A DNA stretch of 64,000 nucleotides, taken from the NCBI GenBank assembly GCA_014728175.1, contig WJMA01000063.1:34413-98412 (forward strand). The letters run 5' to 3'. The notes beneath the pieces are model-generated. The model saw only the letters and a program-made list of their open reading frames with translations. It made no database searches and was not told the origin of the DNA. Source of the stretch: Candidatus Fermentibacterota bacterium. GTDB taxonomy: Bacteria > Fermentibacterota > Fermentibacteria > Fermentibacterales > JCC-6. Made by a program: the position numbers and the translations under genes. This document shows, one piece after another, positions 40,104 to 60,848 of the stretch (the stretch's first letter is position 1; every line of letters begins with the position of its first letter).

Positions 40104-41210
40104 ATGGAGAAGAAGACGTCCCTTTACGAGAAGCACGTTGAGCTGGGAGCCCGCATGACGCCGTTCGCGGGCTTTATCATGCCCGTCCGCTACGACACCC
40201 TGATCTCCGAGCACATGGCGGTGAGAGAAAACGTGGGAATGTTCGATCTGTCCCACATGGGCGAGTTCAGGGTCAAGGGCCCGGCCGCCACCGAGTTCCT
40301 GGATAATGTCCTGACCAATGATGCGGAGGTGGACGTGGGCTCGGCGTTCTACTCCACCATGTGCTACCCGGACGGCGGCATAGTGGACGATCTGGTGGTT
40401 TACCGCCTGGACGACACAGAGTACCTGATAGTGGTGAACGCTTCCAACATAGAGAAGGACTGGGCCTGGGTCTCCAGTCATGCCAAAGCGTTCGACGTGG
40501 AAACCACCAACGAGAGCGATTCCACCACCCTGGTGGCGGTCCAGGGGCCGAACGCCTCCCAGGTGGTTTCACAGCTGACCGACGTGAACCTCAAGGAGCT
40601 GGGCTTCTACCACCAGCGAATGGCCGAGGTGGCCAACAAAGACGCTTTGCTGGCCAGAACCGGTTACACCGGCGAAGACGGTTTCGAGATCTACGTATCC
40701 TCCGACGACGGTCCGGCGCTGTGGGATGCGGTCAGCGAGGCCGGAAGCTCTCTGGACACCGGGCCGATAGTCCCGGTGGGGCTGGGAGCGAGGGACACTC
40801 TAAGGTTGGAGATGGGCTACGCACTTTACGGCAACGACATAGACCATACAACAACCCCCATAGAGGCCAGATTGTCCTGGGTGGTCAAGCTCAAGACCGA
40901 AAAGGAATTCATCGGCAGGGAGGTCCTGGCCCGGCAGAAGCGGGAGAAACCTGGAAGGTACCTCGTCGGTCTGGAGCTCCAGGACAAGGGCATAGCCAGA
41001 GAGGGCGTCGACCTGTTCGAGCACGACCGCAAGGTGGGCGAGGTGACCAGCGGAACCCTCGGGCCCGCCGTCGGGCACTGCGTGTGCCTGGGGTACGTCG
41101 AGCGCGGCTACCACAAGATCGGACGGGACCTGGAAGTGGAGATCCGAGGGAAGAGAAAGAACATAAACCGTGTAAAACTACCATTTTACAAGGATGGAAC
41201 GCACCTGTAG
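40104..41210 (+). CDS. gcvT: Glycine cleavage system aminomethyltransferase (T protein)
   Basis: MFDLSHMGEFRVKG, TGYTGEDGFE and GLGARDTLRLE motifs. Confidence 0.95.
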   Translation: MEKKTSLYEKHVELGARMTPFAGFIMPVRYDTLISEHMAVRENVGMFDLSHMGEFRVKGPAATEFLDNVLTNDAEVDVGSAFYSTMCYPDGGIVDDLVVYRLDDTEYLIVVNASNIEKDWAWVSSHAKAFDVETTNESDSTTLVAVQGPNASQVVSQLTDVNLKELGFYHQRMAEVANKDALLARTGYTGEDGFEIYVSSDDGPALWDAVSEAGSSLDTGPIVPVGLGARDTLRLEMGYALYGNDIDHTTTPIEARLSWVVKLKTEKEFIGREVLARQKREKPGRYLVGLELQDKGIAREGVDLFEHDRKVGEVTSGTLGPAVGHCVCLGYVERGYHKIGRDLEVEIRGKRKNINRVKLPFYKDGTHL

Positions 41211-41243
41211 GGGCAGGAATTTCGTTTACGAAAGGAGCCGAGG

Positions 41244-41630
41244 ATGAGCGAGATACCGGAGGACCTCAGGTTCGCCGAGACCCACGAGTGGGTACGGGAC
41301 GACGGAGACGGCAAGTTCACCATGGGAATAACCGACCACGCCCAGAGCGAGATGGGAGAGATAGTAATGATCGAGCTCCCGTCGGTCGGTGACCAATTCG
41401 ACTCGGGTGACGTAGTGGGCACCCTGGAGGCGGTCAAGACCGCTGCGGACTTCTACGCTCCACTGGGTGGCAAAGTGACCGAGGTGAACGAATCGCTGGA
41501 GGACAGCCCGGAGAAGATCAACCAGGATCCTTACGGAGAAGGTTGGCTGGTGAGCTTCGAGTCCGATGACGGCGAGGCCGTGTCCGGCCTGATGTCGGCC
41601 GCCGAGTACAGGCAGCACGCGGGAGACTGA
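41244..41630 (+). CDS. gcvH: Glycine cleavage system H protein
   Basis: Lipoyl-lysine motif LEAVKTAADFYAP. Size of 128 aa. Confidence 0.95.
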   Translation: MSEIPEDLRFAETHEWVRDDGDGKFTMGITDHAQSEMGEIVMIELPSVGDQFDSGDVVGTLEAVKTAADFYAPLGGKVTEVNESLEDSPEKINQDPYGEGWLVSFESDDGEAVSGLMSAAEYRQHAGD

Positions 41631-41651
41631 GGGAACGGACGGCTTCGGGAT

Positions 41652-43001
41652 ATGAGCAGGTACGTACCGAACGGTGAGGACCAGCATCGGAAGATGCTCA
41701 AGACCATAGGGGCGGATGGCTTCGAGGACCTTCTCCAGCCCATCCCCGAGAAGTACAGGCTGCAGGAGCCTCTGGATCTCCCCCCTCCGGTATCGGAGAT
41801 GGAGCTTCTGGAGGAGTACAGGAGGCTGGCCGGGCGGAACACGGGTCACGGCGCGGTCTGTTTCGCGGGTGGAGGGGCGTACGATCACCTGGTGCCGGCC
41901 GTGGTCGATCACGTGCTTCTCCGCAGCGAGTTCTACACCGCCTACACCCCCTACCAGGCCGAGGCCAGCCAGGGCACCCTCCAGTCCATCTTCGAGTACC
42001 AGACGATGGTGGCCAGGCTGACCGGAATGGAGGTGGCCAACGCGTCCATGTACGACGGAGCGTCCGCCGCCGCCGAGGCGGCGCTGATGGCCATGCGCAT
42101 TACCCGCCGCAACAGGGTGCTGGTAGCGGGCTCGCTGAACCCCGCCTGGTTGGAGGTTATGCGAACGTATCTGGCCCGGGGAGGCTTCGAGCTGAACGAG
42201 GTTCCCTTCGATGAAGACGGCCGGCTGGACCTGAAGGCCGCCGCCAAGATGCGCGGAGACGACACCGCCGCGATGGTCGTGCAGTATCCCAATTACTTCG
42301 GTACGGTAGAGGGTATCCAACCCATGGCCGATCTTATGCATGAGGGAAAGGCGCTGCTGGTGGTAGCCGCCGATCCCGTATCCATGGGGATGCTCCGCCC
42401 ACCGGGAGACATGGGTGCCGACGTGGTGGTGGGAGAGGGCCAGAGCCTGGGACTGCCGCTATCTTACGGGGGGCCCTATTGCGGTTTCATGGCCGGTCTG
42501 AGAAAGCACATCCGCAAGATGCCGGGAAGAATAGTGGGAAGGACCGAGGACCGGGCCGGGGGAACCGGGTACGTCATGACCCTCCAGACCAGGGAGCAGC
42601 ATATCCGAAGAGAGAAGGCCACCAGCAACATATGCACCAACCAGGCCCTGGCGGCCCTGGCCAACGCCGCTTACCTGGCTCTGGCCGGGGAGACCGGCCT
42701 GCGGAGGGTGGCCGAGCTGTGCTTCCACAAGAGCCACTACCTCTTCGACAGGATGGTGGAGCTGCCCGGGGTGGAGCCGGTGTTCGACCTGCCCTTCTTC
42801 GGGGAGTTTCTGGTGAGATTGCCCGTCCCGGCAGAAGAGCTGCGCAACGCGCTGCTCGATCAAGGCTACCTGGCGGGCGTTCCCCTGGTGGAGATGGACG
42901 AGGGGGCTCTACTTGTGGCCGTGACCGAGAAGAGAACGAAGGAGGAGATGGACGGGCTGGTGGATGCGGTCCGGGGCTACATCGAGGAGGCGGTCGAATG
43001 A
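41652..43001 (+). CDS. gcvPA: Glycine dehydrogenase (decarboxylating) subunit 1
   Basis: YTPYQAEASQGTLQ and NASMYDGASA motifs. Position between gcvH and gcvPB. Confidence 0.95.
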   Translation: MSRYVPNGEDQHRKMLKTIGADGFEDLLQPIPEKYRLQEPLDLPPPVSEMELLEEYRRLAGRNTGHGAVCFAGGGAYDHLVPAVVDHVLLRSEFYTAYTPYQAEASQGTLQSIFEYQTMVARLTGMEVANASMYDGASAAAEAALMAMRITRRNRVLVAGSLNPAWLEVMRTYLARGGFELNEVPFDEDGRLDLKAAAKMRGDDTAAMVVQYPNYFGTVEGIQPMADLMHEGKALLVVAADPVSMGMLRPPGDMGADVVVGEGQSLGLPLSYGGPYCGFMAGLRKHIRKMPGRIVGRTEDRAGGTGYVMTLQTREQHIRREKATSNICTNQALAALANAAYLALAGETGLRRVAELCFHKSHYLFDRMVELPGVEPVFDLPFFGEFLVRLPVPAEELRNALLDQGYLAGVPLVEMDEGALLVAVTEKRTKEEMDGLVDAVRGYIEEAVE

Positions 43002-44476
43002 GCGGGACGATATTCGACCACAGCCGCCCGGGGCGGGAGGGCCTCAGCCTGCCCGAGCTCGACGTACCACGTACGGATCCGGCGGAGGCCCTGGGAGGAG
43101 AGCTACTACGGAAGGACGGAATGGGGCTGCCGGAGGTCACCGAGAGCCAGCTGATGAGGCACTACGTTAATATAAGTATTAAGAACTACAATATAGATAG
43201 GGGACTGTACCCTCTGGGCTCGTGCACCATGAAGTACAACCCGAAGCTGCACGAGAACCTGGCCCGCCTCCCCGGGCTCTCCGAGCTGCACCCCCTGCTT
43301 CCGGACGGTCAGGTGCAGGGCACGCTCCAGATCATGTACGAGCTGTCCGACCTTCTCTGCCGGATAACGGGCTTCGACGCCTGCTCCCTGCAACCCGCCG
43401 CGGGCGCCCAGGGGGAGCTCACCGGGCTTCTGCTGATACGCAGCTGTCTGGAGAGCAGGGGAGAGGACCATCGCAACCAGGTACTCATGCCGGACTCTGC
43501 CCATGGAACCAATCCCGCCTCCTGTAGCCTGGCCGGCTTCGAGGTGGTGAGCGTGGAGTCCGACCAACACGGCATGGTCGACGTCGACGACCTGCGTAGT
43601 AAGCTGGGAGACCGGACCGCGGGCCTGATGCTGACCAATCCCAACACTCTGGGGATATTCGAGTCCAAAGTGGAGGAGATAAACGGGCTGGTGCACGATG
43701 CCGGGGGGCTGGTGTACATGGACGGCGCCAACATGAACGCGCTGTTGGGAATCGCGCTTCCGGGAGCCATGGGTTTCGACGTATGCCACCTCAACCTGCA
43801 CAAGACGTTCTCCACCCCCCACGGGGGCGGAGGCCCGGGATCGGGGCCGGTGGTTTGCAATTCCCTGCTGGAACCGTTTCTGCCACAACCCAGAGTGGTG
43901 AAGAACGAGGACGGGTCCTACGGCCTGTCCCGGGGAGGGTCGCAGCCCGTGGGACGCCTGCTCGCCTTCCACGGCAACGTGGGAGTGATGTACAAGGCCT
44001 ATGCCTACGTGTTGAGTCTGGGAACCCGGGGGCTGGAAGAGGTCAGCAGGAACGCCATACTCAACGCCAACTACCTCAAGGCCAGGTTGACCGAGGCGTT
44101 CGACCTCCCGTTCGACTCCGGGCCCTGCATGCACGAATTCGTCGTATCCGGCTCCAGGCAAAAGAAGGAGCATGGAGTCCGGACCCTGGATATGGCCAAG
44201 AGGCTACTTGACTACGGCTACCACGCACCCACAGTGTACTTCCCGCTCATAGTTTCCGAGGCGATGATGGTGGAGCCCACGGAGACCGAGAGCCTGGAAA
44301 GCCTGGATGGGTTCGCGGACGCGTTGTTGTCCATAGCCCGGGAGGCGGAGGAGAAGCCCCACCTGGTTACGGACGCCCCCGTAAACACGCCGGTTCTGAG
44401 ACTGGACGAGGTCCGGGCTATCAAGGAGCTGTGCGTAACCGAGCCTCCGAGCGAGGCCGGTAAGGCGAACGATTAG
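42998..44476 (+). CDS. gcvPB: Glycine dehydrogenase (decarboxylating) subunit 2
   Basis: PLP-lysine motif HLNLHKTFSTPHGGGGPG. The ATG at 42998 overlaps the gcvPA TGA. Confidence 0.95.
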   Translation: MSGTIFDHSRPGREGLSLPELDVPRTDPAEALGGELLRKDGMGLPEVTESQLMRHYVNISIKNYNIDRGLYPLGSCTMKYNPKLHENLARLPGLSELHPLLPDGQVQGTLQIMYELSDLLCRITGFDACSLQPAAGAQGELTGLLLIRSCLESRGEDHRNQVLMPDSAHGTNPASCSLAGFEVVSVESDQHGMVDVDDLRSKLGDRTAGLMLTNPNTLGIFESKVEEINGLVHDAGGLVYMDGANMNALLGIALPGAMGFDVCHLNLHKTFSTPHGGGGPGSGPVVCNSLLEPFLPQPRVVKNEDGSYGLSRGGSQPVGRLLAFHGNVGVMYKAYAYVLSLGTRGLEEVSRNAILNANYLKARLTEAFDLPFDSGPCMHEFVVSGSRQKKEHGVRTLDMAKRLLDYGYHAPTVYFPLIVSEAMMVEPTETESLESLDGFADALLSIAREAEEKPHLVTDAPVNTPVLRLDEVRAIKELCVTEPPSEAGKAND

Positions 44477-44478
44477 GT

Positions 44479-44898
44479 TTGGAGTGGGTCTCTCATCCCG
44501 CCAGGGAAAGGCCCTGGTCCACGGTCCTGCTGCTGCTGATAATGATTCTGGCTGCTGTTGCGGCGACCGCGGTGGGAGGAAATCCGTGGTGGGGCATTCT
44601 GGGTTTTCTTCTTCTGTTCGCCTCACTGTGGAGCTACTTCCTGCCCTGCCGGTACATCATGGACGACCGGGGGGTTCGAAAGCGCTCCCTGTTCGGCGAG
44701 GAGAAGATGACCTGGGACCGGGTCCGCAGCATCGTGCCCGACAGGTACGGGGTGCTGCTGAGCCCTTTTCCCGAACCATCGCGGCTGGCGAAGTTCAGGG
44801 GCCTCTCGGTGCAGTTCTCCGGCAACGGAAGGGAAGTACTTGAGTTCGTACGGGACAGGATGGGATCACGAGGTCCTGGTACGGAACGACAAGGATGA
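44479..44898 (+). CDS. Small membrane protein (2 TM plus a soluble domain of about 80 aa, PH-like by inference)
   Basis: TM helices VLLLLIMILAAVAATAV and WWGILGFLLLFASLW. The TTG start lies 2 nt after the gcvPB stop. Confidence 0.6.
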   Translation: MEWVSHPARERPWSTVLLLLIMILAAVAATAVGGNPWWGILGFLLLFASLWSYFLPCRYIMDDRGVRKRSLFGEEKMTWDRVRSIVPDRYGVLLSPFPEPSRLAKFRGLSVQFSGNGREVLEFVRDRMGSRGPGTERQG

Positions 44899-45295
44899 GG
44901 ACTACTCCGCGCTCATCAAGAAGCTGGCGGTGGCGGTAGTGGAAAGGCAGCTAACCGTTCCGGCGATAGTATTCCTGGAATCGGTGAAGCCGCTTTCCTT
45001 TCTGGGCAACCAGCTGCTAGTGTTTCTTAACCCTTTCGTCTCCCTGCTGGTAAGCTCGGGCAACTACTACGCCTTCGTGAGGATGATCGAGGACAGGGAG
45101 AACTTGGAGAGGCTCATAGAGGCCATAGAGGAGGAGAACGCCCGATTCGAGGAACGTAAGAAAAAGCTTCGTGAGGAACGTAGGAAAAAGGGATCCCTCT
45201 GGACGAGGCTAACCAGCAAGCTCAAGGCAAGCACAAGGCATCAGAAGGGAGATCGCATTGGCCGGCATGGAGATAAAGAGGATCCTGGCGACTGA
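44840..45295 (+). CDS. Small protein with a hydrophobic hairpin and a charged coiled-coil-like tail. Start uncertain.
   Basis: Hydrophobic stretch LTVPAIVFLESVKPLSFLGNQLLVFLNPFVSLLV, then ENLERLIEAIEEENARFEERKKKLREERRKK. Overlaps both neighbouring genes. Confidence 0.5.
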   Translation: MSSYGTGWDHEVLVRNDKDEDYSALIKKLAVAVVERQLTVPAIVFLESVKPLSFLGNQLLVFLNPFVSLLVSSGNYYAFVRMIEDRENLERLIEAIEEENARFEERKKKLREERRKKGSLWTRLTSKLKASTRHQKGDRIGRHGDKEDPGD

Positions 45296-47129
45296 TTGCG
45301 GCAGCACGACCACCAAGGCGATTCTCATCGAGAAGGTGGACGGGGAGTACCGCCTGATAAGGCGGGGTGAGGCTCCCACCACGGTCGAGGCTCCCGCCGA
45401 GGACGTGACCAAGGGAGTCCTCAACGCGGTCGGTGAGATAGAGGACCTCGAGAACAGGTACCTTTTGGGCGAGGACCGGGACAGCGTCCACGTCTCCAGC
45501 GACGGCTCGGGAGGGGTGGACCTCTACGTATCCACGTCATCGGCCGGAGGGGGCCTACAGATGACGGTAGCCGGCGTGGTCAAGACCATGACCGCCGAGA
45601 GCGCTCAGAGGGCCGCTCTGGGAGCGGGAGCCATAGTGATGGACGTGGTGGCCTCCAACGACGGCCGCCTTCCCCACGAGAAGGTGGCGTCGATAAGGAA
45701 GTTCCGGCCGGACATGATTCTCCTGTCCGGCGGAGTGGACGGCGGCACCACGGAGCATGTGGTGGAGCTGGCCGAGGTTATCAAGGCGGCGGACCCCAAG
45801 CCCAGGTTCGGAGTGGGATACAAGCTCCCGGTAATTTACGCCGGCAACGTCGACGCCCGGGATGCGGTAAGAGACGAGCTGGCCGAGAACATGGAGCTCA
45901 AGGTGGTGGAGAACCTCAGACCGGTCCTGGAGAGTGAGAACCTGGGTCCGGCCAGAGACACCATCCACGAGCTGTTCATGGAGCATGTCATGGCCCAGGC
46001 TCCGGGATACCCCAAGCTGATGAGCTGGACCGGACACTACGACGAGGGAGACTGGAGCCAGGTGCCCATAATGCCCACTCCCGGAGCGGTGGGAAAGCTT
46101 ATAGAGACGGTCGCCCACAAGGAGAGCATAGAGGTGATGGGCGTGGACATCGGGGGAGCGACCACCGACGTCTTCAGCGTATTCGAGAACCTGTCGGGAA
46201 ACAAGGTCTTCAACCGGACGGTCTCGGCCAACCTGGGTATGAGCTACAGCGTGTCCAACGTGTTCGCCAGCGCCGGCATTGAGAACGTGATGCGATGGGT
46301 TCCGTTCGACATGGAGGAGTCTGATCTACGCAATAGAATACGCAACAAAATGATACGCCCGACTACGATCCCCCAGACCCTCAGAGAGCTGATAATAGAG
46401 CAGGCCATAGCCAGGGAGGCCCTCCGGCTGGCTCTGAGGCAGCACGGCGACCTGGCCAGGGGTCTGAAGGGTGTGGCCCAGGAGAGGACCATTAGCGACG
46501 CCTTCGAGCAAACCCAGACCGGAGCCACCCTGGTGGACATGATGTCTCTCAATCTCCTCATAGGCTCCGGAGGTACGCTCTCCCATGCCCCCAGACGGGC
46601 GCAGGCCGCGCAGATGCTCATAGACGCCTTCCTACCGGAGGGAGTGACCATGCTGGCGGTGGACTCCATCTTTATGATGCCCCAGCTGGGGGTGCTGTCC
46701 GAGGTACAGGAGGACGCGGCCACGGAAGTGTTCGACAAGGACTGCCTGATCAGGCTGGGTACCTGCATCGCTCCCGCCGGAAGCGCCAAGAAGCTCAAGG
46801 GCCCCATGGCCAGGGTCGAGCTGGAGATGCCCGACGGGCAGGGCGAGAGGTTGGAGATCGATTACGGGGAGATACGGGTCGTTCCTCTGGAGGTCGGTAA
46901 AAAGGCCCGGGCGACGATATCTCCGGCCAAGTCGATGGACGTAGGGGCCGGCCAGGGGGATACCTGGACCGGTACTCTGGAAGGCGGGGTGGTAGGGCTG
47001 ATATTCGACGGAAGGGGAAGGCCCTTCCACCTGCCTGAGGACGACGGAGAAAGGGTTGCCAAGCTGCAGGAATGGGCCGAGTCTCTGCAGTCCTATCCCG
47101 AGAAGTACGTCACGATGGGAGGTGAGTAA
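45258..47129 (+). CDS. MutL-family (glutamate mutase component L-like) ASKHA-fold ATPase
   Basis: Phosphate-1 motif ILATDCGSTTTKAILIE and phosphate-2 motif MGVDIGGATTDVFSV. Length of about 620 aa, typical of the family. Alternative ATG at 45267. Confidence 0.85.
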   Translation: MAGMEIKRILATDCGSTTTKAILIEKVDGEYRLIRRGEAPTTVEAPAEDVTKGVLNAVGEIEDLENRYLLGEDRDSVHVSSDGSGGVDLYVSTSSAGGGLQMTVAGVVKTMTAESAQRAALGAGAIVMDVVASNDGRLPHEKVASIRKFRPDMILLSGGVDGGTTEHVVELAEVIKAADPKPRFGVGYKLPVIYAGNVDARDAVRDELAENMELKVVENLRPVLESENLGPARDTIHELFMEHVMAQAPGYPKLMSWTGHYDEGDWSQVPIMPTPGAVGKLIETVAHKESIEVMGVDIGGATTDVFSVFENLSGNKVFNRTVSANLGMSYSVSNVFASAGIENVMRWVPFDMEESDLRNRIRNKMIRPTTIPQTLRELIIEQAIAREALRLALRQHGDLARGLKGVAQERTISDAFEQTQTGATLVDMMSLNLLIGSGGTLSHAPRRAQAAQMLIDAFLPEGVTMLAVDSIFMMPQLGVLSEVQEDAATEVFDKDCLIRLGTCIAPAGSAKKLKGPMARVELEMPDGQGERLEIDYGEIRVVPLEVGKKARATISPAKSMDVGAGQGDTWTGTLEGGVVGLIFDGRGRPFHLPEDDGERVAKLQEWAESLQSYPEKYVTMGGE

Positions 47130-47132
47130 ACC

Positions 47133-48263
47133 ATGGCCTTCGCCTATACTCCCGGCCTCAGGGTGGCCAAGGCAACCGTGGTTCGCAAGGAGAGGCGCCT
47201 GCCCTTGAAGGGGGAGGTCTCCGTCTCCATGGGCGACCGGGTGAGCGCGGACACCGTAGTGGCCAAGACCGATCTTCCGGGAAACGTGAGGATGCTCAAC
47301 GTCTCCAAGATAATCGGTCTGCCCCCCGGCGACATTCCCGAGCTCCTGCTGAAGGAACCCGGGGACAGGATCGAGGAGAGGGAGCCCATAGCCAGATCGA
47401 AGGGTTTCCTGGGCCTCTTCAAGAACACGGCGAGATCCCCCATCGAAGGAGTATTCGAGGATTACAACGAGATAACCGGGCAGTCGGTGCTGCGCGAGCC
47501 CCCCATACCCGTGGACGTTGACGCCTACGTCTCCGGTAAGGTCGTGGAAATACTGGAGGACGAGGGCGTGGTGGTGAAGACCTTCGGCACGTTCGTGCAG
47601 GGGATCTTCGGCATAGGCGGCGAGACCCGCGGCGAGCTGAAGCTGGTGGTGGACGGTCCGGAAGAGGAACTGACCGCCGACCATCTGGACGAAACCTGCC
47701 GGGGCAAGGTCGTGGTGGGAGGCTGCTTCGTCAGCCAGGACACTCTCCACCGAGCGGTCGAGCTGGGAGTGAGCGCCGTGGTGGTGGGAGGCTTCGACGA
47801 CAAGGATCTGAAAGATTTCCTCGGCTACGAGCTGGGCGTGGCCATAACCGGTCACGAAGAGAAGGGCATAATCCTGATGCTGACCGAGGGATTCGGAAGG
47901 ATGAACATGGCCCGGGCGACCTTCGATCTGCTGGCAGAACGGGAAGGTCTTCTGGCCAGCGTCAACGGTGCCACCCAGATTCGAGCCGGAGTAATGAGGC
48001 CCGAAGTAGTGGTGCCTCTGGAAGAGGAACGGGCGCCGGCTCCCTCGGAGAGGGAGCGACCGGAGTCGGGGGCGATGGACGTCTCCTCCCGGATCCGGGT
48101 CATAAGGGCACCCTACTTCGGCAGGCTGGGCAAGGTGGTTTCCCTTCCGCCGGAGTTGCAGGAGCTGGAGAGCGAATCCAAGGTGAGGGTGCTGAAGGTC
48201 GAGTTCGACGACGGAGAGAAGGCCACGGTTCCCAGAGCCAACGTAGAGCTGATAGAGGAGTAG
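47133..48263 (+). CDS. 376-aa cytoplasmic protein of unknown function (N-terminal barrel-sandwich-hybrid-like, central alpha/beta, C-terminal KOW/SH3-like by inference)
   Basis: GGGAGGTGAG upstream. GDRVSADTVVAKTDLPG and GDRIEEREPIARSKG resemble the two halves of a lipoyl-like hybrid barrel. The C-terminus is RVIRAPYFGRLGKVVSL...VRVLKVEFDDGEKATVP. Confidence 0.8.
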   Translation: MAFAYTPGLRVAKATVVRKERRLPLKGEVSVSMGDRVSADTVVAKTDLPGNVRMLNVSKIIGLPPGDIPELLLKEPGDRIEEREPIARSKGFLGLFKNTARSPIEGVFEDYNEITGQSVLREPPIPVDVDAYVSGKVVEILEDEGVVVKTFGTFVQGIFGIGGETRGELKLVVDGPEEELTADHLDETCRGKVVVGGCFVSQDTLHRAVELGVSAVVVGGFDDKDLKDFLGYELGVAITGHEEKGIILMLTEGFGRMNMARATFDLLAEREGLLASVNGATQIRAGVMRPEVVVPLEEERAPAPSERERPESGAMDVSSRIRVIRAPYFGRLGKVVSLPPELQELESESKVRVLKVEFDDGEKATVPRANVELIEE

Positions 48264-48266
48264 GAA

Positions 48267-49439
48267 ATGGGCCGGCTGGGTCTCTTCCTGGTGATTCTGA
48301 TCGGGCCCGTACCTGCGCTGGCCGCTGGTTCTGCCGGGCCAGATCAGGCCCGGCCCGTGGCCGACAGCTTCGAAGCGGTCGACTCCCCCAACGACGCCGG
48401 CGGGGTGATAGAGCTCTCCTGGGCAATGTCCCCGGGCTCGAAACTGGTGGACTCCATGCTGGTTACCAGATCGAAGGCCGGAGGCCCGGAAAACGTGCTC
48501 AGCGTCGTAAGCCCGGTCTCCACCAGTTACCGGGACACGACTGTGGCGAACGGAGTCCGGTACAGCTACGCTCTGGTGCCGATGCTGGATGGTCGAAGGC
48601 TGGCCGAGGTCGGCCCGGTGGCAGCTTCCGCCAGCGCCCAGTGGATCCACTCCGGTCGATCCGGGATGCTGATCATAACCGTCATCCTCGCCGCCTTCAT
48701 CCTTTACTTCATAAGGCACGGCCGGAAGGGCGGGGAGCTCTACATAAGGCAGATCGCGGGCCTCAGCGCGGTGGACGACGCGGTGGGGAGGGCAACGGAG
48801 ATGGGACGTCCGGTCCTGTACATCCCCGGAATAATGGACATGGACAACATCCAGACCATAGCCAGCACGGTCATCCTGGGCCGGGTGGCCGCCCGGACGG
48901 CCGAGTACGGAACACCGCTGATGGTACCGGTAAGCAAGAGCGTGGTGCTGAGCGTGGCCCAGGAGGTGGTCAAGGAGGCATATCTGGAGGCGGGCCGGCC
49001 CGACGCCTTCCAAAAGGATAGCATATCCTACCTGACAGACGATCAGTTCGGCTACGCCGCCGGGGTTGACGGGATAATAGTCAGGGAGAAACCCGCGGCC
49101 ATATTCCTTCTGGGGGCCTTCTACGCGGAGAGCCTGATCCTGGCGGAGACCGGACGTAGCGTGGGAGCGATCCAGATCGCCGGAACCGCCATGCCCAGCC
49201 AGCTGCCTTTCTTCATCGCCGCCTGCGACTACACCCTGATAGGGGAGGAGCTCTTCGCAGCCAGCGCTTACCTGTCGCGTGAACCCAAGTTGTTGGGCAG
49301 CCTGAAGGGTCAGGACGTCGCCAAGCTGTTCTTCATGGTGGTGATAGTGCTGGGCGTCATAGCGTCAACCGTGGGGCAGGCCTGGGACCCGGCGTCGGAG
49401 ATCGCGGCCTTCATCCGCAACCTGACCCACGTGGAATAG
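48267..49439 (+). CDS. Membrane protein: signal/anchor, FN3-like ectodomain, TM helix, alpha/beta domain of about 200 aa, terminal TM helix
   Basis: MGRLGLFLVILIGPVPALA. FN3-like IELSWAMSPG...YRDTTVANGVRYSYALVP. TM helices MLIITVILAAFILYFI and LFFMVVIVLGVIA. Confidence 0.8.
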   Translation: MGRLGLFLVILIGPVPALAAGSAGPDQARPVADSFEAVDSPNDAGGVIELSWAMSPGSKLVDSMLVTRSKAGGPENVLSVVSPVSTSYRDTTVANGVRYSYALVPMLDGRRLAEVGPVAASASAQWIHSGRSGMLIITVILAAFILYFIRHGRKGGELYIRQIAGLSAVDDAVGRATEMGRPVLYIPGIMDMDNIQTIASTVILGRVAARTAEYGTPLMVPVSKSVVLSVAQEVVKEAYLEAGRPDAFQKDSISYLTDDQFGYAAGVDGIIVREKPAAIFLLGAFYAESLILAETGRSVGAIQIAGTAMPSQLPFFIAACDYTLIGEELFAASAYLSREPKLLGSLKGQDVAKLFFMVVIVLGVIASTVGQAWDPASEIAAFIRNLTHVE

Positions 49440-49449
49440 GAGGGGAGGG

Positions 49450-50106
49450 ATGAGACTCTACGTACCTTTGGGAATAACCTTCATCGCCGGGATCATAATG
49501 ATCCTGGAGTTCTTCGTTCCCCATGATCCTTTTCCCACCCTGGGCGGCCATGTTAAGGACTGGTACACGATAGTGGCTTCCTCGGCGATTTTCCTGGGGA
49601 TACTGAACCTGCTCAGGGTCCATCTGAAGAAGATCAATCTCCGGTCCCGCAACTGGCAGTACAGCCCGGTGACCATAATCGGGTTCCTGGGCATGTTCGG
49701 GACCGGGGTGGCCTTCGGCTTCACCGAGGGGCCCTTCTTCTTCATGTTCAACGAGTTCGTGGTTCCCATGGGTGCCACGATGTTCAGCCTGCTGGCCTTC
49801 TTCGTGGCCTCGGCCGCGTTCCGGGCATTCAGAGCCTCCAACTGGCGGGCCTCTCTTCTTCTGGCCTCCGCCTTTTTGGTGATGCTGGGAAGGGTGCCCA
49901 TAGGTGACCTGATCTGGAGGCTGATACCGGGTGCCGCCGAGAGCGCGCATCCCAACCTGGTCACCGAGATCGGCGAGTGGATAATGAGGGTCCCCAACAT
50001 GGGAGGGCAGAGAGCGATACTCATAGGCGCCGCCATGGGTGTGGTGGCCACCTCGCTGCGGATGATCTTCGGCATCGAGCGCAGCTACCTCGGGGGAACC
50101 GACTGA
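49450..50106 (+). CDS. Polytopic membrane protein (about 6 TM), unknown function
   Basis: AGGAGGGGAGGG lies immediately before the ATG. Hydrophobic throughout. Its stop overlaps the next start (TGATG). Confidence 0.8.
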   Translation: MRLYVPLGITFIAGIIMILEFFVPHDPFPTLGGHVKDWYTIVASSAIFLGILNLLRVHLKKINLRSRNWQYSPVTIIGFLGMFGTGVAFGFTEGPFFFMFNEFVVPMGATMFSLLAFFVASAAFRAFRASNWRASLLLASAFLVMLGRVPIGDLIWRLIPGAAESAHPNLVTEIGEWIMRVPNMGGQRAILIGAAMGVVATSLRMIFGIERSYLGGTD

Positions 50107-50978
50107 TGGCCGACTTCTGGAAGAGACTGGGCGAGATCGACCGGAGGATCATCTTCGTACTGATAGCCCTGGCGGTGTTGGTTCCCCTGGCCCTGAAGCT
50201 GGCGTTCCCCATACCTGTGGGCAAGGGCCCCAGCAAGGACTTCTTCGACTCCGTCGACTCCCTTCCCCCCGAGTCCGTGGTGCTGATGAGCTTCGATTAC
50301 GATCCTTCCACCAAGCCCGAGCTCCATCCGATGGCCATTGCCATCGTGCAGCATCTGATGAGCACCGACGTGAACCTGGTGGCGATGGCTCTTTGGCCCC
50401 AGGGCGCCTCCCTGGCCCAGGAGATCCTGGTGGAAATCTCGGACAGTCTGGGAAGGGAGCAGTACCACGATTGGGTGAACCTGGGGTACAAGACGGGCGG
50501 ACTTGTTCTTATCGCCCGTCTGGGAAGCTCGATGAAGGCGGCCTTTCCCACCGATCTTAGCGAGACGCCGTACGGGCAGATACCCATGCTGGACGGGATA
50601 CAGAGGCTTTGCGACTTCGACATGATAATCACCCTCTCCGCGGGCGACCCGGGAATACCCCACTGGGTGATGGTCGCCTCCGACCAGCTGGGCGTGCCGG
50701 TGGGAGGAGGCTGCACCGCGGTCAGCGCCCCGCAGTTCTACCCCTACCTGCAGCGGAGGGTCGGGGAGAGACCCCAGATGGAAGGGCTGCTGGGCGGGTT
50801 GAGAGGAGCGGCCGACTACGAGGCCCTGCTCAGACGCAAGTACGCCCAGGCCCCACCGGGAACCGCCATAGCCGGAATGGCGGCCCAATCGGTTGCCCAC
50901 CTGGTCATCATGGTGTTCATAGTGCTGGGCAACCTCTCCTACCTGGCCCTGCGCAAGCGGAAGGAGGGTCAGCGATGA
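50106..50978 (+). CDS. Membrane protein: N-terminal TM helix, alpha/beta domain of about 230 aa, C-terminal TM helix. Unknown function.
   Basis: RRIIFVLIALAVLVPLAL, then the soluble part, then AHLVIMVFIVLGNLSYLAL. I chose the ATG at 50106 inside the track ORF 49977..50978. Confidence 0.8.
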   Translation: MADFWKRLGEIDRRIIFVLIALAVLVPLALKLAFPIPVGKGPSKDFFDSVDSLPPESVVLMSFDYDPSTKPELHPMAIAIVQHLMSTDVNLVAMALWPQGASLAQEILVEISDSLGREQYHDWVNLGYKTGGLVLIARLGSSMKAAFPTDLSETPYGQIPMLDGIQRLCDFDMIITLSAGDPGIPHWVMVASDQLGVPVGGGCTAVSAPQFYPYLQRRVGERPQMEGLLGGLRGAADYEALLRRKYAQAPPGTAIAGMAAQSVAHLVIMVFIVLGNLSYLALRKRKEGQR

Positions 50979-51625
50979 GCTGGGAGATGGTAGGTATATG
51001 GGGCGGCGCCCTGCTCACCCTGTGCCTGTACAGCTTCCTCTACCGCGACAATCCGTTTTACAAGTTCGCCGAGCACCTCTTCGTGGGGATGAGTGCGGGA
51101 TATTGGGCGATCTACACCATATTCAACGTGCTCAAGCCGAACTGGTGGGACAAGCTGGTGGGAGCGGGCGACGCCGACCCGCAGCTCATCATGATAATCC
51201 CCGGATTGCTGGCCGTTCTGATGCTGATGCGGGTGGTATCCAAGCTGGCTACGTACTCTCGGCTGCCCCTGGCCTTGATAGTGGGAGCGGGAGCGGGCCT
51301 ACAGCTGGTCAGCTTCTTCCAGACCAACGGCTTGAAGCAGGTGGAGAACACGGTAATTCCTCTGGTTGGAAGCGGAGTGGGTCCCACCATAGACAACCTG
51401 TTGATCGTGACCGCGGTGGTGTGCGGCCTGGTGTACTTCTTCTTCTCCAAGGCCCACAGGGGAATAACCGGTGGCATGGCCAACGTGGGGATCACCATGC
51501 TGATGGTGGCCTTCGGGGCCAGCTTCGGTTACACGGTGATGGCCCGTATAAGCCTGCTAATAGGCCAGGCCCAGTTCCTGCTGTTCGAATGGGTTCCCAC
51601 CATACCGAGAATACTGGGCCTTTAG
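50975..51625 (+). CDS. Polytopic membrane protein (about 6 TM), unknown function
   Basis: The ATG at 50975 overlaps the upstream TGA. Hydrophobic segments run throughout. Confidence 0.8.
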   Translation: MSWEMVGIWGGALLTLCLYSFLYRDNPFYKFAEHLFVGMSAGYWAIYTIFNVLKPNWWDKLVGAGDADPQLIMIIPGLLAVLMLMRVVSKLATYSRLPLALIVGAGAGLQLVSFFQTNGLKQVENTVIPLVGSGVGPTIDNLLIVTAVVCGLVYFFFSKAHRGITGGMANVGITMLMVAFGASFGYTVMARISLLIGQAQFLLFEWVPTIPRILGL

Positions 51626-51651: not shown

Positions 51652-51680
51652 TTGACAGCCTCAGGGGCCAGCCTTATTCT
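51652..51680 (+). promoter_or_regulatory. Possible sigma70-like promoter upstream of the TonB-dependent receptor gene
   Basis: TTGACA (51652-51657), a 17-nt spacer, then TATTCT (51675-51680). The lineage may use other promoter consensus sequences. Confidence 0.3.
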
Positions 51681-51902: not shown

Positions 51903-54599
51903 GTGTACAGTAGGGCAACGACGATATCGCTCGCCCTGGTGCTGTTCATCGCACTCTCCGCTATGGCGGGAACCACGGGCAAGATAGCGGGTCGGGTGAC
52001 CGACGAGGATGGCAACCCGCTCGTGGGCGCAACCGTCATGATAGAGGGAACCAGCTACGGTGCGATGACAGACGCCAACGGCGAGTACTTCATAATCAAT
52101 CTTCAACCAGGATCTTACGACGTAGTCTGCCAGATGGTCGGTATGGGCCGTCAGACGATGAGCGGGGTAACGGTCATCGCCGACCAGACCACCCGGATCG
52201 ACTTCCAACTTCGCCCCGAGGCCGTCGGTGAGATTACGATCGAGGTTACCGCCGATGAGACCGATATAATGATGGACGTCACCGAGCAGCTTCATGTGGT
52301 AAGCCGCGAGGACATCGAGACCATGCCGGTCTCCGGTATTACCGACATCGTCGGTCGTCAGGCCGGAATAACCGTTCAGAACGGTAACGTCCACGTGCGC
52401 GGCGGACGCGAGGGCGAGGTCGTCTACATGGTGGACGGCCTGTCCGTGATGAATCCCACCGGCAACTTCCGAGCCACCACCGTTCCGGTGTCGGCGATTC
52501 AGGAAACCTCGGTCATAACCGGTGGTTTCGGAGCCGAGTACGGCAACGCCCAGTCGGGAATCGTCAACATCGTCACCCGCGAGGGTGGCGACGAGTACGA
52601 CTTCAACTACCGGATCTTCGCCAACGACTTTCCCACCCTGGGTCTGGCCGAAGACTGGCACTGGAGCGACGACGGGCCCTTCCGGGAGGCCAGGATAGAC
52701 ATGACGGGCGCCGTAGGCGGCCCCGAGCCCCTGTTCAGCTACCTGTTCCCGGCCATGGGAATGGACGTTCCGGGAGACGTCAGGATAATGCTTTCCGGTA
52801 GCATGATCACCTGGGGAGGCGGTCCGGACGAGCGCTACGGCGACCAGGTGAACGATGGCGGGGAGACCATAAGGGCCAACGTCAAGCTTACCTACAGGCC
52901 CAGCGCCCGAACCAGGATGAACTTCGCCTACCAGAGCGAGGACCACGAGCGCGGATACTCCTACTGGAGCGTTTGCTGGCCCTTCGCGAGGTTCGAGGAG
53001 GAGTACGTAACCGAGCAGGGCGATACGGTAGGCCAGGGCATCGAGTACGGCCTCCCAACCCTATTCGGGGACGACTACACCTACTCCTTCGGCCTTACCC
53101 AGACCCTGAGCGACAACACGTTCATGGAGACCAAGCTGCAGTACATGAACGAGGAGTTCCAGTACAAGATCCGCGACATGGACGGCGGCTGGGTAGGCGA
53201 GGACTACACCGTAGACGACTGGCTGAACTACACCCCCGATCGCATCCAGGACTCCGACGGCTTCTACCGCTACGGCGCCAGCCGGTACGCGTGGTACGAC
53301 CGCCGCACCAGGATCGGTCAGGGCCGCATAGACGTAACCAGCCAGATAACCAACGAGCACCAGATCAAGGCGGGTATCGAGGGCCATTACTACGACCTGT
53401 TCGAGTACAGGGTCGACACCGCCTCGGGAGGCAACATCTACCTCGACCGCTGGCACGCCTACCCCAACATGGGCGCGGTCTACATACAGGACAAGATGGA
53501 GTACAGGGGGATGATAGTTAACGCCGGCCTCCGGTTCGACTACCTCGATCCCAACTACTCCAACTATCCGGCCGACGTCGGCGACCCGGTCAACCCGGGC
53601 ACCTCCTGGGGAGACCCCGACCATATAAAGAACCCGGTCGACGTCTCCATGAAGTACCACCTCAGCCCCCGGGTCGGCTTCTCCCACCCCATAACCGACC
53701 GCGACGTGCTCCACTTCACCTACGGCCACTACTTCCAGACCCCCTCGATGGACCAGCTGTTCGAAGGGGCCGACTACAACCTGTCCGGGGCCTTCCCCAT
53801 CGTGGCCAACCCCGATCTGGAGCCCGAGGAGACCATCTCCTACGAGGTGGGAGTGAAGCACCAGTTCAACGACAACACCATGCTCAGCGTCGCCGGCTTC
53901 TACAAAGACATCACCGGCCTGGTGGACATGCAGAAGGTCTACTACTCGCCGGTAGATAACTACGACCTCTTCGTAAACGGCGACTACGGCAACGTCCGCG
54001 GAGCCGAGCTGAGCATCGTCCGCAGACCCAGCAACTTCTGGGCCGTCAACGCCAACTACACCTACCAGGTGGCCCAGGGCAAGAGCTCGTCCGCTTACCA
54101 GAACTACACCTACAACTGGGCCGGATGGATCATACCCAAGCAGGAGTCCTACCTGGATTGGGACCAGAGGCACGAGATAAGCGCCAACCTCGACTTCCGC
54201 ATCCCCAGGGGCGAGGGCCCCAGAATGGGCGACTATCCCATCCTGGAGGGATTCGGAATCAACCTCGACTGGACGTTCGGAAGCGGTTACCCGTTCACCA
54301 AGGACGCCCAGGGAACCCTCTCCCCGGTCATCAACGGAGAGAGGCTCCCCTGGACCAGCACCACCGAGCTGAAGGTCAACAAGAGGTTCTGGACCGGACC
54401 GGTCTCGTTCAACCTGATGTGCTGGGTTACCAACCTCTTCAACCGCAGAAACATCAATCATCTGGCCGACGAAGGCTGGTACCTCGCCGACCAGGACGGA
54501 GACGGTGAGCCCGACTACGATCCCAAGGGCTCCATGCATAACCCGTACGTTTACTCGCTGGAACGGCAGATCCGTTTCGGTCTGGGCATCGAGTGGTAG
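51903..54599 (+). CDS. TonB-dependent outer-membrane receptor with an N-terminal carboxypeptidase-regulatory-like domain
   Basis: Signal peptide. GKIAGRVTDEDGNPLVGATVMIEGT...GEYFIINLQPGSYDV. Plug motifs VHVRGGREGEVVYMVDG and GAEYGNAQSGIVNIVT. C-terminal RFGLGIEW. GTG start. Confidence 0.85.
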   Translation: MYSRATTISLALVLFIALSAMAGTTGKIAGRVTDEDGNPLVGATVMIEGTSYGAMTDANGEYFIINLQPGSYDVVCQMVGMGRQTMSGVTVIADQTTRIDFQLRPEAVGEITIEVTADETDIMMDVTEQLHVVSREDIETMPVSGITDIVGRQAGITVQNGNVHVRGGREGEVVYMVDGLSVMNPTGNFRATTVPVSAIQETSVITGGFGAEYGNAQSGIVNIVTREGGDEYDFNYRIFANDFPTLGLAEDWHWSDDGPFREARIDMTGAVGGPEPLFSYLFPAMGMDVPGDVRIMLSGSMITWGGGPDERYGDQVNDGGETIRANVKLTYRPSARTRMNFAYQSEDHERGYSYWSVCWPFARFEEEYVTEQGDTVGQGIEYGLPTLFGDDYTYSFGLTQTLSDNTFMETKLQYMNEEFQYKIRDMDGGWVGEDYTVDDWLNYTPDRIQDSDGFYRYGASRYAWYDRRTRIGQGRIDVTSQITNEHQIKAGIEGHYYDLFEYRVDTASGGNIYLDRWHAYPNMGAVYIQDKMEYRGMIVNAGLRFDYLDPNYSNYPADVGDPVNPGTSWGDPDHIKNPVDVSMKYHLSPRVGFSHPITDRDVLHFTYGHYFQTPSMDQLFEGADYNLSGAFPIVANPDLEPEETISYEVGVKHQFNDNTMLSVAGFYKDITGLVDMQKVYYSPVDNYDLFVNGDYGNVRGAELSIVRRPSNFWAVNANYTYQVAQGKSSSAYQNYTYNWAGWIIPKQESYLDWDQRHEISANLDFRIPRGEGPRMGDYPILEGFGINLDWTFGSGYPFTKDAQGTLSPVINGERLPWTSTTELKVNKRFWTGPVSFNLMCWVTNLFNRRNINHLADEGWYLADQDGDGEPDYDPKGSMHNPYVYSLERQIRFGLGIEW

Positions 54600-54617
54600 G
54601 CTGTTAGACTCGCTTTA

Positions 54618-54649
54618 GGGGGCGGGCCCGGTTCACCCGGGCCGCCCCC
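54618..54649 (+). terminator. GC-rich hairpin after the receptor gene
   Basis: GGGGGCG(G)GCCCGG-ttcac-CCGGGC-CGCCCCC gives about 13 bp with one bulge. No T-tract follows. Confidence 0.35.
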
Positions 54650-54681
54650 AGCACCATCTGATTAAGGAGTGACACTTCATC

Positions 54682-55524
54682 ATGCGTACTCTCTTGTATG
54701 TCTTCCTTACCGTCTTCTGTGCCTTGGCGATGGCTCAGCCACCCGGTGCCGGGGACGCAGCCGCCGATACGGCGGCGGCCGGTAGCGATACCGCAGAGGT
54801 GGGCGAGGCACCCGCCCCTGTGGATGAGCCGCCCGAAACCAGCCCTCCCGCCGCGGACGTGGAGACCGAGGAGGTGGAGAGGCAGCAGAGCGCCAGCATG
54901 AACCTGAAGGACCTGTTCGTGGCCGGCGGGAACTTCATGTGGCCGCTGCTCCTGGCTCTCCTGATCGGAATCGCGGTGGCCATAGAGAGGTTCGTAACCT
55001 TCAGCAGGGCCAAGATAGACGTGGCAAGGTTCCTGGAGCAGATAGGAGGCTACCTGCGCAAGGGCGATCTCAAGGGCGCCGAGGACCTCTGCGACCGCAC
55101 CCGCGGTCCGGTAGCCTCCGTCCTCAGGGCCGGCTTGTTGAGAAGGGACAAGGGCCTGGAATCGGTGGAGAAGGCCATAGACAGCGCGGGCGGGATAGAG
55201 ATGGCGTTTCTGGAGAAGCGCATCGTCGTCCTGGCCTCCGTGGCAAGCATCGCGCCAATGCTGGGCTTCCTGGGAACGGTCTCGGGAATGATAAGGGCCT
55301 TCGGCGAGATCGCCGCGGCCAAGAACGTGGAGGCCAGCCTGGTTGCGGGCGGTATTCAGGAGGCGCTGATAACCACCGCGTCCGGATTGGCCATAGCCAT
55401 TCCCGTCCAGGCCGCGCACCACTACTTCGTGGCCCGCATAGGCGGCTTCGTGACCGACATGGAGGAGGCCAGCGGTTTCCTTATGGACACCCTGGCCGAC
55501 ATGGAGCAGCTGAAACAGCTGTAG
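54682..55524 (+). CDS. exbB: MotA/TolQ/ExbB-family proton channel with a signal peptide and an acidic Ala/Pro-rich N-terminal spacer
   Basis: Core motifs WPLLLALLIGIAVAIER, IAPMLGFLGTVSGMI and ALITTASGLAIAIP. Confidence 0.85.
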   Translation: MRTLLYVFLTVFCALAMAQPPGAGDAAADTAAAGSDTAEVGEAPAPVDEPPETSPPAADVETEEVERQQSASMNLKDLFVAGGNFMWPLLLALLIGIAVAIERFVTFSRAKIDVARFLEQIGGYLRKGDLKGAEDLCDRTRGPVASVLRAGLLRRDKGLESVEKAIDSAGGIEMAFLEKRIVVLASVASIAPMLGFLGTVSGMIRAFGEIAAAKNVEASLVAGGIQEALITTASGLAIAIPVQAAHHYFVARIGGFVTDMEEASGFLMDTLADMEQLKQL

Positions 55525-55533
55525 GGGAAACGA

Positions 55534-56747: not shown

Positions 56748-56759
56748 GGGGAGATAGAG

Positions 56760-57431: not shown

Positions 57432-57525
57432 GAAAGGAATCAGCAAAAAGTTACTCGACGAAGACTTCACGTTCAGCCGGCCCTTCGCGGGGGCGGTAAC
57501 GAATGAAACGGAGGTGAAGGAGGGT

Positions 57526-59790: not shown

Positions 59791-59807
59791 TGGAGGAAGG
59801 AGGGACC

Positions 59808-60788: not shown

Positions 60789-60807
60789 CGAGGTAACGAT
60801 ATTGATC

Positions 60808-60835: not shown

Positions 60836-60848
60836 CGAAGGAAAGGAA

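Follow-up and report, generated by a model that had tools for sequence, protein, structure and literature searches.

A conserved gene set pairing a MutL-family actin-fold ATPase with a four-subunit membrane module, a probable cell-envelope machine of a new kind

Introduction

GlmL, of the MutL family of ASKHA (actin-fold) ATPases, has been reported to be a chaperone that reactivates glutamate mutase (PMC4682846). It is a stand-alone protein of about 460 amino acids (aa) and is encoded beside mutase genes. Here we analyze a relative of GlmL that is encoded in a different setting. The locus consists of eight genes, designated g1 to g8, at 44479-51625 on the plus strand of a 64,000-nucleotide (nt) stretch of contig WJMA01000063.1, from a Candidatus Fermentibacterota bacterium (assembly GCA_014728175.1). 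This whole stretch is called the window, and positions given without a locus label are counted from its first letter. The ATPase encoded by g3 shares the Pfam family MutL (PF13941), the ASKHA fold and the aligned motifs with GlmL and with other ASKHA reactivases (Or-4, EutA). It differs from GlmL in that it is 620 aa long, is always paired with the cytoplasmic protein g4, to which it is fused in two clusters of homologues (P0384 and P0446), is never next to mutase genes, and is syntenic with a four-subunit membrane module, g5 to g8. We propose, tentatively and at slightly less than an even chance, that g1-g8 encode an ATP-driven inner-membrane machine that acts in the periplasm and has the actin-fold ATPase as its engine. 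More generally, we think that the system probably represents a novel type of cell-envelope machine.

A cytoplasmic ATPase with polytopic subunits and an envelope gene context is also characteristic of the type VII ATP-binding cassette (ABC) mechanotransducers and extractors (MacB, LolCDE, FtsEX) and of GldAFG, and g7, with a large periplasmic domain between two transmembrane (TM) helices, is laid out like GldG and the periplasmic domain of MacB. The analogy is one of function only. Unlike in these systems, the candidate engine is an actin-fold ATPase with g4 and not a P-loop protein, and PDB profile searches found no homologous subunit. A P-loop or ABC domain (ABC_tran) was detected in none of g1-g8, while the neighbouring MsbA-like gene, which served as a positive control, was detected. 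Pfam matches to FtsX/MacB, ABC-2 or BPD_transp permeases were absent from 37, 35 and 24 family members of g6, g8 and g7, respectively, and PDB profile searches gave no match. Energy-coupling factor (ECF) transporters, in which a shared EcfAA'T module serves several S components, follow the same logic as the present system, where g2-g4 is encoded once together with one to three membrane modules that are adjacent or dispersed. The protein families are unrelated, however, and each membrane module comprises four subunits with periplasmic domains. ASKHA proteins that sit on bitopic partners (PilM-PilN, FtsA-FtsN, GspL) are likewise tethered to an envelope-spanning assembly, but g3 comes from the hydantoinase/GlmL branch and the partner proteins are unrelated. 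Finally, the N-terminal barrel-sandwich-hybrid of g4 matches, in some orthologues, a domain of RnfC and NqrA, the peripheral subunits of Rnf and Na+-NQR, and g6 and g8 are near NqrD/E in size. Within the library covered, literature searches on DUF6754 (a domain of g5), PF13941, the TIGR01319/GlmL family, this gene set, and Fermentibacteria in connection with glycine cleavage returned nothing relevant. An earlier note, made from the window's sequence by itself, could not assign the locus to any characterised system, and our literature and database comparisons agree. The system is, however, larger and more modular than that note described.

Results

The core of the system is a set of seven genes, g2 to g8, that is kept together across more than 15 phylum-level lineages in at least five gene orders, so that the synteny of the orthologues, which the earlier note had singled out for checking, holds far beyond the window. 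We examined about 170 independent loci, including 80 centred on g5 and 80 centred on g3 in metagenome contigs, and with synteny over a sample of this kind the arrangement is not due to chance. The genes g5-g6-g7-g8 were contiguous in all 80 g5 loci retrieved. In 44 of 50 informative metagenome loci a g4 gene follows g3 at a distance of no more than 1.7 kb, and in 21 of 21 GTDB loci the two genes are likewise within 1.7 kb of each other. The genes g5-g8 shared the locus with g3 in 12 of the 21 g3-centred loci whose flanks were 8 kb or longer on each side. When the flanking open reading frames (ORFs) were clustered, the only families recurring across phyla were g1-g8. The g5 family is present in at least 571 GTDB species representatives. 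Record titles of the g5 loci name Fermentibacteria, Zixibacteria, WOR-3, Stahlbacteria, Coatesbacteria, Poribacteria, Phycisphaerae, Ignavibacteriales, Cloacimonadota, Wallbacteria, Acidobacteria and Desulfobacterota; other searches added Edwardsbacteria, Calditrichaeota, GN15, Ozemobacteraceae, Planctomycetaceae and UBP9. The best g5 matches (73-95%) were from Fermentibacteria, the window's own lineage. Every named homologue comes from a metagenome-assembled genome (MAG), with no cultured host among them.

The gene orders observed were gcv-g1-g2-g3-g4-g5..g8, where gcv stands for glycine cleavage genes; g3-g4-g2-g5..g8; g5..g8-g2-g3-X-g4-g5'..g8', where X is a further gene described below; divergent g5..g8, in one to three copies, beside g3-X-g4-tolQRAB-pal-cpoB; and g2-g5-g6-g7-g8-g3-g4. 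The genes thus fall into a cytoplasmic set (g2-g4) and a membrane set (g5-g8), two modules that can be separated or multiplied. Two to three tandem paralogous g5-g8 modules stand beside a single g2-g3-g4 module in Zixibacteria, Coatesbacteria, MAGs labelled Ignavibacteriales, and others. Gene fusions were found within both sets. The g3::g4 fusions, of 995 aa (12 members) and 1003 aa (Ca. Ozemobacteraceae), fall into two separate clusters and are both embedded in the same operon type, and a g7::g8 fusion of 568 aa is present in locus L168. These fusions, together with the presence of several membrane modules per ATPase module, argue for a physical complex, and we consider it highly probable that g2-g8 form one functional system.

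The cytoplasmic set shows further variation. It is itself tandemly duplicated, as g3-g4-g2-g3-g4, in L126 and L149 (6150-12976), where the first g4 is about 437 aa long. In Zixibacteria, Coatesbacteria and a clade linked to Tol-Pal genes, a secreted protein of about 246 aa, X, is encoded between g3 and g4 (L020 15840-16580, also L021, L023, L025, L029, L033 and L116; L128 11882-12622 and relatives). In Zixibacteria this protein matches DUF6134, and in the Tol-linked clade it is without a Pfam match. A defence system or mobile element was also considered for the locus as a whole and was rejected: PADLOC gave only a sub-significant match to LmuB (E=0.0053), and searches for a plasmid or viral contig match to the system were negative.

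The putative engine, g3 (45258..47129, +; 620/623 aa), matches Pfam MutL with E=1.6e-125 over residues 9-496. The earlier note had recognised the two phosphate motifs, and we place DCGSTTTK (phosphate-1) at residues 10-17 (nt 45294-45317, +) and DIGGATTD (phosphate-2) at residues 294-301 (nt 46146-46169, +); an adenosine motif, GSGGTLSHAP, is encoded at 46563-46592 (+). All three are invariant in 12 sequences from different phyla, for which the mean column identity is 71%. By these motifs g3 is an ASKHA ATPase of the MutL/GlmL lineage in which the ATPase signature is intact. It evolves more slowly than the P-protein GcvPB: in the same genome pairs, identity is about 67% for g3 and 48-55% for GcvPB. 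Other Pfam matches are weak (Hydantoinase_A, Hydant_A_N, and MreB-like_C with E=0.014), and there is none to FtsA or PilM. As a reference for genuine GlmL we used E. coli O157 ECs_0763, whose gene lies between glmS and glmE. Residues 6-487 of g3 align with GlmL residues 3-454 with all three motifs matched up (28% identity over 450 residues, E=1e-33; hhalign probability 99.85%), and g3 carries a beta-rich C-terminal extension of about 130 aa that is conserved and missing from genuine GlmL. Against the NCBIfam models, g3 remained below every cut-off: 225.7 bits for GlmL (NF040745; cut-off 475), 222.1 for Or-4 (NF040744; 600) and 159 for TIGR01319 (204).

These data bear on the role classically assigned to GlmL/MutL, in which g3 would reactivate a B12-dependent mutase encoded elsewhere. 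Such a role is what the MutL match and the hhalign score would lead one to expect. Neither mutase nor B12 genes flank g3 in the window, however, no mutase family recurs among the flanking ORF families of the 80 + 80 loci, and no mutase or B12 gene is recurrent in the whole sample of about 170. An Rfam scan found no cobalamin riboswitch in the window, its sole matches being two tRNAs. Because of the 28% identity, the sub-cut-off scores, the extra C-terminal domain and the lack of a nearby mutase gene, g3 is, on this comparison, a paralogue and not an orthologue of the B12-mutase reactivase GlmL. Together with the fusion of g3 to g4 and its synteny with membrane proteins, these points largely refute the classical role, which we regard as extremely improbable. 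The earlier note had already argued that mutase reactivation does not explain the ATPase, and the GlmL scores, the g3::g4 fusions and the flanking gene families bear it out. A role in corrinoid uptake or salvage was rejected on the absence of the riboswitch and of B12 genes. The two tRNA genes lie away from the locus, at 8758-8831 (-) and 10942-11015 (+).

The cytoplasmic partner of g3 is g4 (47133..48263, +; 376 aa), for which AlphaFold2 gave a confident model (mean predicted local distance difference test score, pLDDT, 86.2). In the model, residues 11-171 make up a barrel-sandwich-hybrid and beta half and residues 193-295 a small alpha/beta domain, which an acidic linker separates from a KOW/SH3-like barrel (320-373); glycine-rich loops (QGIFGIGGE, TEGFG and NGATQIRAGV) are invariant. 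Foldseek against the PDB returned local matches only, to KOW domains (NusG, Spt5, eS4, PetP) and PA-domain-like folds, and no match to the whole protein. Orthologues of g4 pass the Pfam cut-offs for RnfC_N, NQRA_N and Biotin_lipoyl; those passing for RnfC_N/NQRA_N are in P0110, P0117 and P0480, and matches to this type of domain reach up to 37 bits (cut-off 25.6). The window's own g4 has only weak, sub-cut-off matches (Biotin_lipoyl, KOW). The barrel-hybrid-like and KOW-like ends that the earlier note had seen in this protein are therefore supported by the model, by Foldseek and by the Pfam matches of the orthologues. The position of a biotin/lipoyl carrier lysine is not conserved. The family is large, with 989 clusters at 50% identity (E<=1e-30). 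Some of its members, 448-475 aa long (P0422, P0480), carry an additional barrel-sandwich-hybrid-like insert, and the longer first g4 of L126 and L149 agrees with these variants.

Two small proteins accompany this pair. The 151-aa g2 (44840..45295, +) is a hairpin/coiled-coil protein with a basic tail and a conserved amphipathic/hydrophobic hairpin (LTxPAIxFLESxKPLSFxGSQ). In nearly every lineage its gene is placed beside g3 or between g4 and g5, and we propose that g2 is the membrane anchor of the ATPase module. The 139-aa g1 (44479..44898, +) is a membrane protein with an 80-aa basic cytoplasmic domain; the two TM helices that the earlier note had ascribed to it were recovered by hydropathy, at 16-34 and 39-57. 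It is found in Fermentibacteria and several other clades and is absent from Zixibacteria and a marine clade, so it is an accessory gene that is dispensable in some lineages. Neither g1 nor g2 belongs to a Pfam family; both gave sub-threshold matches only.

The membrane set begins with g5 (48267..49439, +; 390 aa), a bitopic protein in which a signal peptide is followed by a periplasmic FN3 domain (about 31-122, with a DxPNDxG motif), a TM helix (131-149), the DUF6754 core (about 200 aa, in the cytoplasm), and another TM helix (351-369). The topology of g5 to g8 was deduced from family-averaged hydropathy. DUF6754 (PF20539) matches residues 123-373 with E=3e-121 (403.9 bits; cut-off 27) and is present in all 120 g5 homologues listed. 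The FN3 domain, which the earlier note had reported, is backed by a PDB profile search (titin FN3, E=6e-16) and by Foldseek matches to bacterial Fn3 modules. It occurs in zero, one or two copies according to lineage, sometimes with coiled-coil inserts, and is thus dispensable in some lineages. In contrast to this variable periplasmic part, the best-conserved stretch of the whole membrane module is cytoplasmic, at DUF6754 residues 283-350. We considered DUF6754 as a polytopic ion-translocating domain and rejected this, as hydropathy puts residues 150-350 outside the membrane.

The remaining subunits are the three further membrane proteins of the earlier note; the TM counts of the locus were reproduced with family-averaged hydropathy. 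The 218-aa g6 (49450..50106, +) has six TM helices with both ends inside and an invariant cytoplasmic loop, SAAxRAFRAR, after TM4. The 290-aa g7 (50106..50978, +) starts inside, crosses the membrane, forms a periplasmic alpha/beta-type domain of about 228 aa, and returns through a TM helix with invariant His265 and Asn276 to a basic C-terminus inside. The earlier note had counted a single extracytoplasmic module, the FN3 domain; that domain stands, but g7 adds a second. The 216-aa g8 (50975..51625, +) has about six TM helices and the invariant motifs SFLYxDNPFYxFAEH and FFSKEHxG. In both g6 and g8 the invariant residues sit in cytoplasmic loops outside the TM cores, and no conserved polar residues were found along their TM helices. 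Overall, DUF6754, g2, g3 and g4 are cytoplasmic, and FN3 and the g7 domain periplasmic. Scanning 24-37 members per family singly gave no credible Pfam match for g6, g7 or g8, and PDB profile searches found no sequence relative of any of the three. Thus, across Pfam, NCBIfam and PDB profile searches, no membrane component has detectable homology to a characterised transporter or machine, a point that the earlier note had left to homology searches. Altered forms come from distant lineages (L170 5533-6591, L169 5590-6534, L168 6214-7920), where g5 lacks both FN3 and signal peptide, about 100 aa are inserted into g6 between TM3 and TM4, and g7 is fused to g8.

Two further proposals for the membrane set were rejected. 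Paralogy among its subunits (g5/g7, g6/g8) fails in hhalign (probability <=5%). In an Nqr/Rnf-like complex, only the barrel-sandwich-hybrid of g4 would resemble RnfC/NqrA and g6/g8 are not paralogous; the Rnf-Nqr polytopic, FMN_bind and Fe-S/flavin domains and conserved Cys motifs were all missing from g1-g8. MotA_ExbB and ExbD/TolR domains were likewise not found in g1-g8 and are present in neighbouring genes only.

In the window, the eight genes directly follow the glycine cleavage genes gcvT, gcvH, gcvPA and gcvPB (40104..44476, +), which we treat as context and not as part of the core. The ORF listing recovered all eight plus-strand genes where the earlier note had placed them. That note had described the genes as separated by 2-10 nt or joined by overlapping start and stop codons. 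This is correct for the gcvPB stop and g1 start (2 nt), g3-g4 and g4-g5 (3 nt each), g5-g6 (10 nt), and the TGATG (50104-50108) and ATGA (50975-50978) shared by g6/g7 and g7/g8, respectively, but not for the first two junctions within the locus. The only in-frame starts for g2 are TTG 44840, preceded by the Shine-Dalgarno-like run GGAAGGGAAG, and GTG 44930; consequently, g1 and g2 most likely overlap by 59 nt and are not separated by a short gap. The start of g3 is either TTG 45258 (with AAGGGAG 6 nt upstream) or ATG 45267, and with either start it overlaps g2 by 29-38 nt. Promoter- and terminator-like sites in the 39.4-52.4 kb region were in no excess over shuffled sequence, and the same scan found no terminator-like site between the gcv genes and g1. 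The sole good promoter-like site (51652-51680) lies 3' of g8, ahead of a TonB-dependent receptor gene. Given this lack of excess, the unit probably extends from gcvT to g8, and the gcv genes and g1-g8 are probably co-transcribed. A 793-aa antisense ORF across g3-g5 (46632-49013, -) has no homology support; like the other long antisense ORFs it is a typical artefact of coding sequence with 61% GC.

The proximity to glycine cleavage genes is itself conserved. In at least four g3 clades gcvPB stands immediately 5' of (g1-)g2-g3, and gcv genes adjoin the unit in 14 of 50 metagenome loci and 8 of 23 GTDB loci (gcv genes precede (g1-)g2-g3 in L065, L096, L099, L101, L102, L107, L118, L120, L121, L130, L134, L146 and L160). 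By its spacing, gcvPB is translationally coupled to the unit both in the window (2-nt gap) and in the low-GC locus L102, which has a 10-nt overlap between gcvPB and g2 and lacks a g4 in the vicinity. One could suppose, by analogy with GlmL and glutamate mutase, that g2-g3(-g4) acts as an ATP-dependent chaperone or reactivase, or as a regulator, of the glycine cleavage P- or H-protein, with the lipoyl-like barrel-sandwich-hybrid of g4 mimicking GcvH. The coupling, the recurrent adjacency and the Biotin_lipoyl/RnfC_N-type fold of g4 would all fit. However, gcv genes are not near the system in most lineages (Zixibacteria, Coatesbacteria, Phycisphaerae, the marine and Tol-linked clades, L168-L170), g3 and g4 are far more tightly linked to g5-g8 than to gcv, g4 has no lipoyl-lysine, and an enzyme complex that is soluble would not require a membrane module of four subunits. 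We judge an accessory role in glycine cleavage to be very unlikely.

Apart from gcv, the recurrent neighbours are envelope systems only: Tol-Pal, Ton, PATAN/ExbBD and Wzz. In the window (51903-57431) and in other Fermentibacteria, g8 is followed by a Ton cluster that encodes a SusC-like TonB-dependent receptor (with CarboxypepD_reg, Plug and barrel domains in the window), ExbB, two ExbD proteins and TonB. This cluster is among the points in favour of an alternative based on uptake and vectorial trapping. According to it, g5-g8 would be a facilitator or importer for a periplasmic solute delivered by TonB-dependent receptors, and a membrane-docked g3/g4 enzyme, similar to a kinase or to a hydantoinase/oxoprolinase, would modify it; the product may feed glycine to the adjacent gcv system. 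The weak hydantoinase matches of g3 and its C-terminal beta domain, which gives it a HyuA-like layout, are consistent with such an enzyme, as are the invariant glycine-rich loops of g4, which look like a ligand site. The pair of six-TM proteins g6/g8 resembles the core of an ABC importer, and the gcv genes directly upstream in at least four clades would provide the metabolic outlet. Several observations argue in the other direction. A periplasmic binding protein is absent, the g6/g8 TM helices lack conserved polar residues, and g4 is unlike HyuB or any enzyme in the PDB. It would be unusual for a catabolic enzyme to be more conserved than the housekeeping GcvPB, several paralogous channels onto one enzyme are hard to rationalise, and in other lineages the neighbours are Tol-Pal or Wzz and not catabolic genes. 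On balance, uptake with trapping is unlikely.

Outside Fermentibacteria the envelope neighbours take other forms. In nine loci of one clade (L128 11882-18935; L044, L053, L088, L089, L091, L097, L112 and L148), g3-X-g4 is directly followed by a complete tolQ-tolR-tolA-tolB-pal-cpoB cluster, with up to three g5-g8 modules divergent and upstream. In WOR-3, four loci (L022 6792-10050; L027 9364-12221; L028; L035) conserve, 3' of g8, genes for a PATAN/DUF4388 protein, for a pair of unannotated proteins (about 200 aa each), for a pair of small membrane proteins, and for ExbB and ExbD; gene sets with PATAN/DUF4388 and ExbBD are associated with motility regulation. In Ca. Ozemobacteraceae, a gene for a Wzz/polysaccharide co-polymerase (L166 4091-4855) shares 4 nt with the 3' end of a g3::g4 fusion gene, and YegS and CdsA genes precede g2 in a marine lineage. 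The Tol-Pal and PATAN/ExbBD neighbours would also suit a membrane-anchored cytoskeletal scaffold, in which g3, as a polymer or as a static ATP-bound platform resembling FtsA, PilM or MreB, would underlie g5-g8 and organise envelope growth, division or surface movement with Tol-Pal/Ton-type motors. The actin fold and the very high conservation of g3 over its whole surface (the 71% given above) agree with this proposal, and the hairpin/coiled-coil protein g2 could be its membrane tether. On the other hand, no polymers are known among the members of the hydantoinase/GlmL branch (PMC5597319), to which g3 belongs, and direct evidence for polymerisation is lacking. The obligatory, fusion-prone partner g4 and the one-to-several ratio of engine to membrane modules suit an enzyme or an engine better than a filament. 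We consider a scaffold of this kind quite improbable, although less so than a role in glycine cleavage.

Two other features of the window's Ton cluster and its surroundings were recorded. The first ExbD is 249 aa long and has a long C-terminal extension that is not of the ExbD type. Beyond the cluster, 57514-63328 encodes a 758-aa ORF without a Pfam match, followed by an outer-membrane protein of the PorV type and by two proteins with a GWxTD domain, and may be a cluster related to the type IX secretion system or to surface proteins.

Discussion

Gene content, synteny, fusions, domain folds, topology and intact ATPase motifs are the observations on which we infer that g1-g8 encode an ATP-driven envelope complex; this is not a demonstrated function, and physical docking, the direction in which energy would flow, and what the complex acts on or does belong to the inferred part. 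In the machine we tentatively favour, g3 and its obligate partner g4, a multidomain beta-rich adaptor, would form a cytoplasmic engine that g2, joined by g1 in some lineages, tethers to the membrane. With about 12 TM helices between them, g6 and g8 would make up the membrane core. The engine would dock on DUF6754 of g5, the proposed docking site, as well as on the conserved loops that g6 and g8 expose to the cytoplasm, and the periplasmic side would be furnished by the FN3 domain of g5 and the 228-aa domain of g7. Binding and hydrolysis of ATP by g3 would cause a conformational change that is passed through g4 to DUF6754 and from there across the membrane. The resulting periplasmic work might be the extraction or translocation of an envelope component, or the activation of a periplasmic partner, and one engine could serve several paralogous membrane modules. 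We prefer this scheme because the cytoplasmic face is conserved and the periplasmic parts are variable, because one engine is accompanied by several modules, because the TM cores lack conserved polar residues, and because the neighbours are envelope systems.

Several points weigh against such a machine. Docking and energy coupling are read from genomics alone, and to our knowledge no ASKHA ATPase powers a membrane transporter or mechanotransducer, so that there is no precedent. The AlphaFold2 model of the DUF6754 part of g5 is unreliable (pLDDT 35-75), and as the model is poor outside FN3, the Foldseek result for g5 speaks for FN3 only. In 9 of the 21 g3-centred loci with at least 8 kb of flank, the membrane module is not nearby, and in Poribacteria and WOR-3 there are g5-g8 loci without g3 or g4 within 10 kb. 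Lastly, the conserved link to glycine cleavage is not explained by an ATP-driven machine.

A bolder version of the same proposal is that this is the first primary membrane machine (transporter/extractor or transmembrane mechanotransducer) that runs on an actin-fold engine of the reactivase lineage, through a dedicated adaptor (g4) and with interchangeable four-subunit membrane modules, in place of a P-loop, P-type or rotary ATPase, and that it has a housekeeping envelope function in many uncultured phyla. We offer it as a possibility that is more likely to fail than to hold. If the ATPase does drive the membrane module, an actin-fold engine would represent a new principle of energy coupling in membrane biology.

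The system is chromosomal and strongly conserved, and its scale is considerable, with about 1000 g4 clusters at 50% identity and g5 in at least 571 species from more than 15 bacterial phyla, mostly uncultured. For five of the seven core proteins there is no annotated family, and a relative of solved structure is lacking for all seven. The labels under which the proteins appear in databases ('glutamate mutase L', 'NusG', 'RatB antitoxin', 'hypothetical') either say little or are incorrect, and our assignments correct this systematic mis-annotation. The Tol-Pal, Ton and Wzz neighbours point to an unrecognised function in envelope maintenance or transport in bacteria of the FCB and PVC groups and of candidate phyla.

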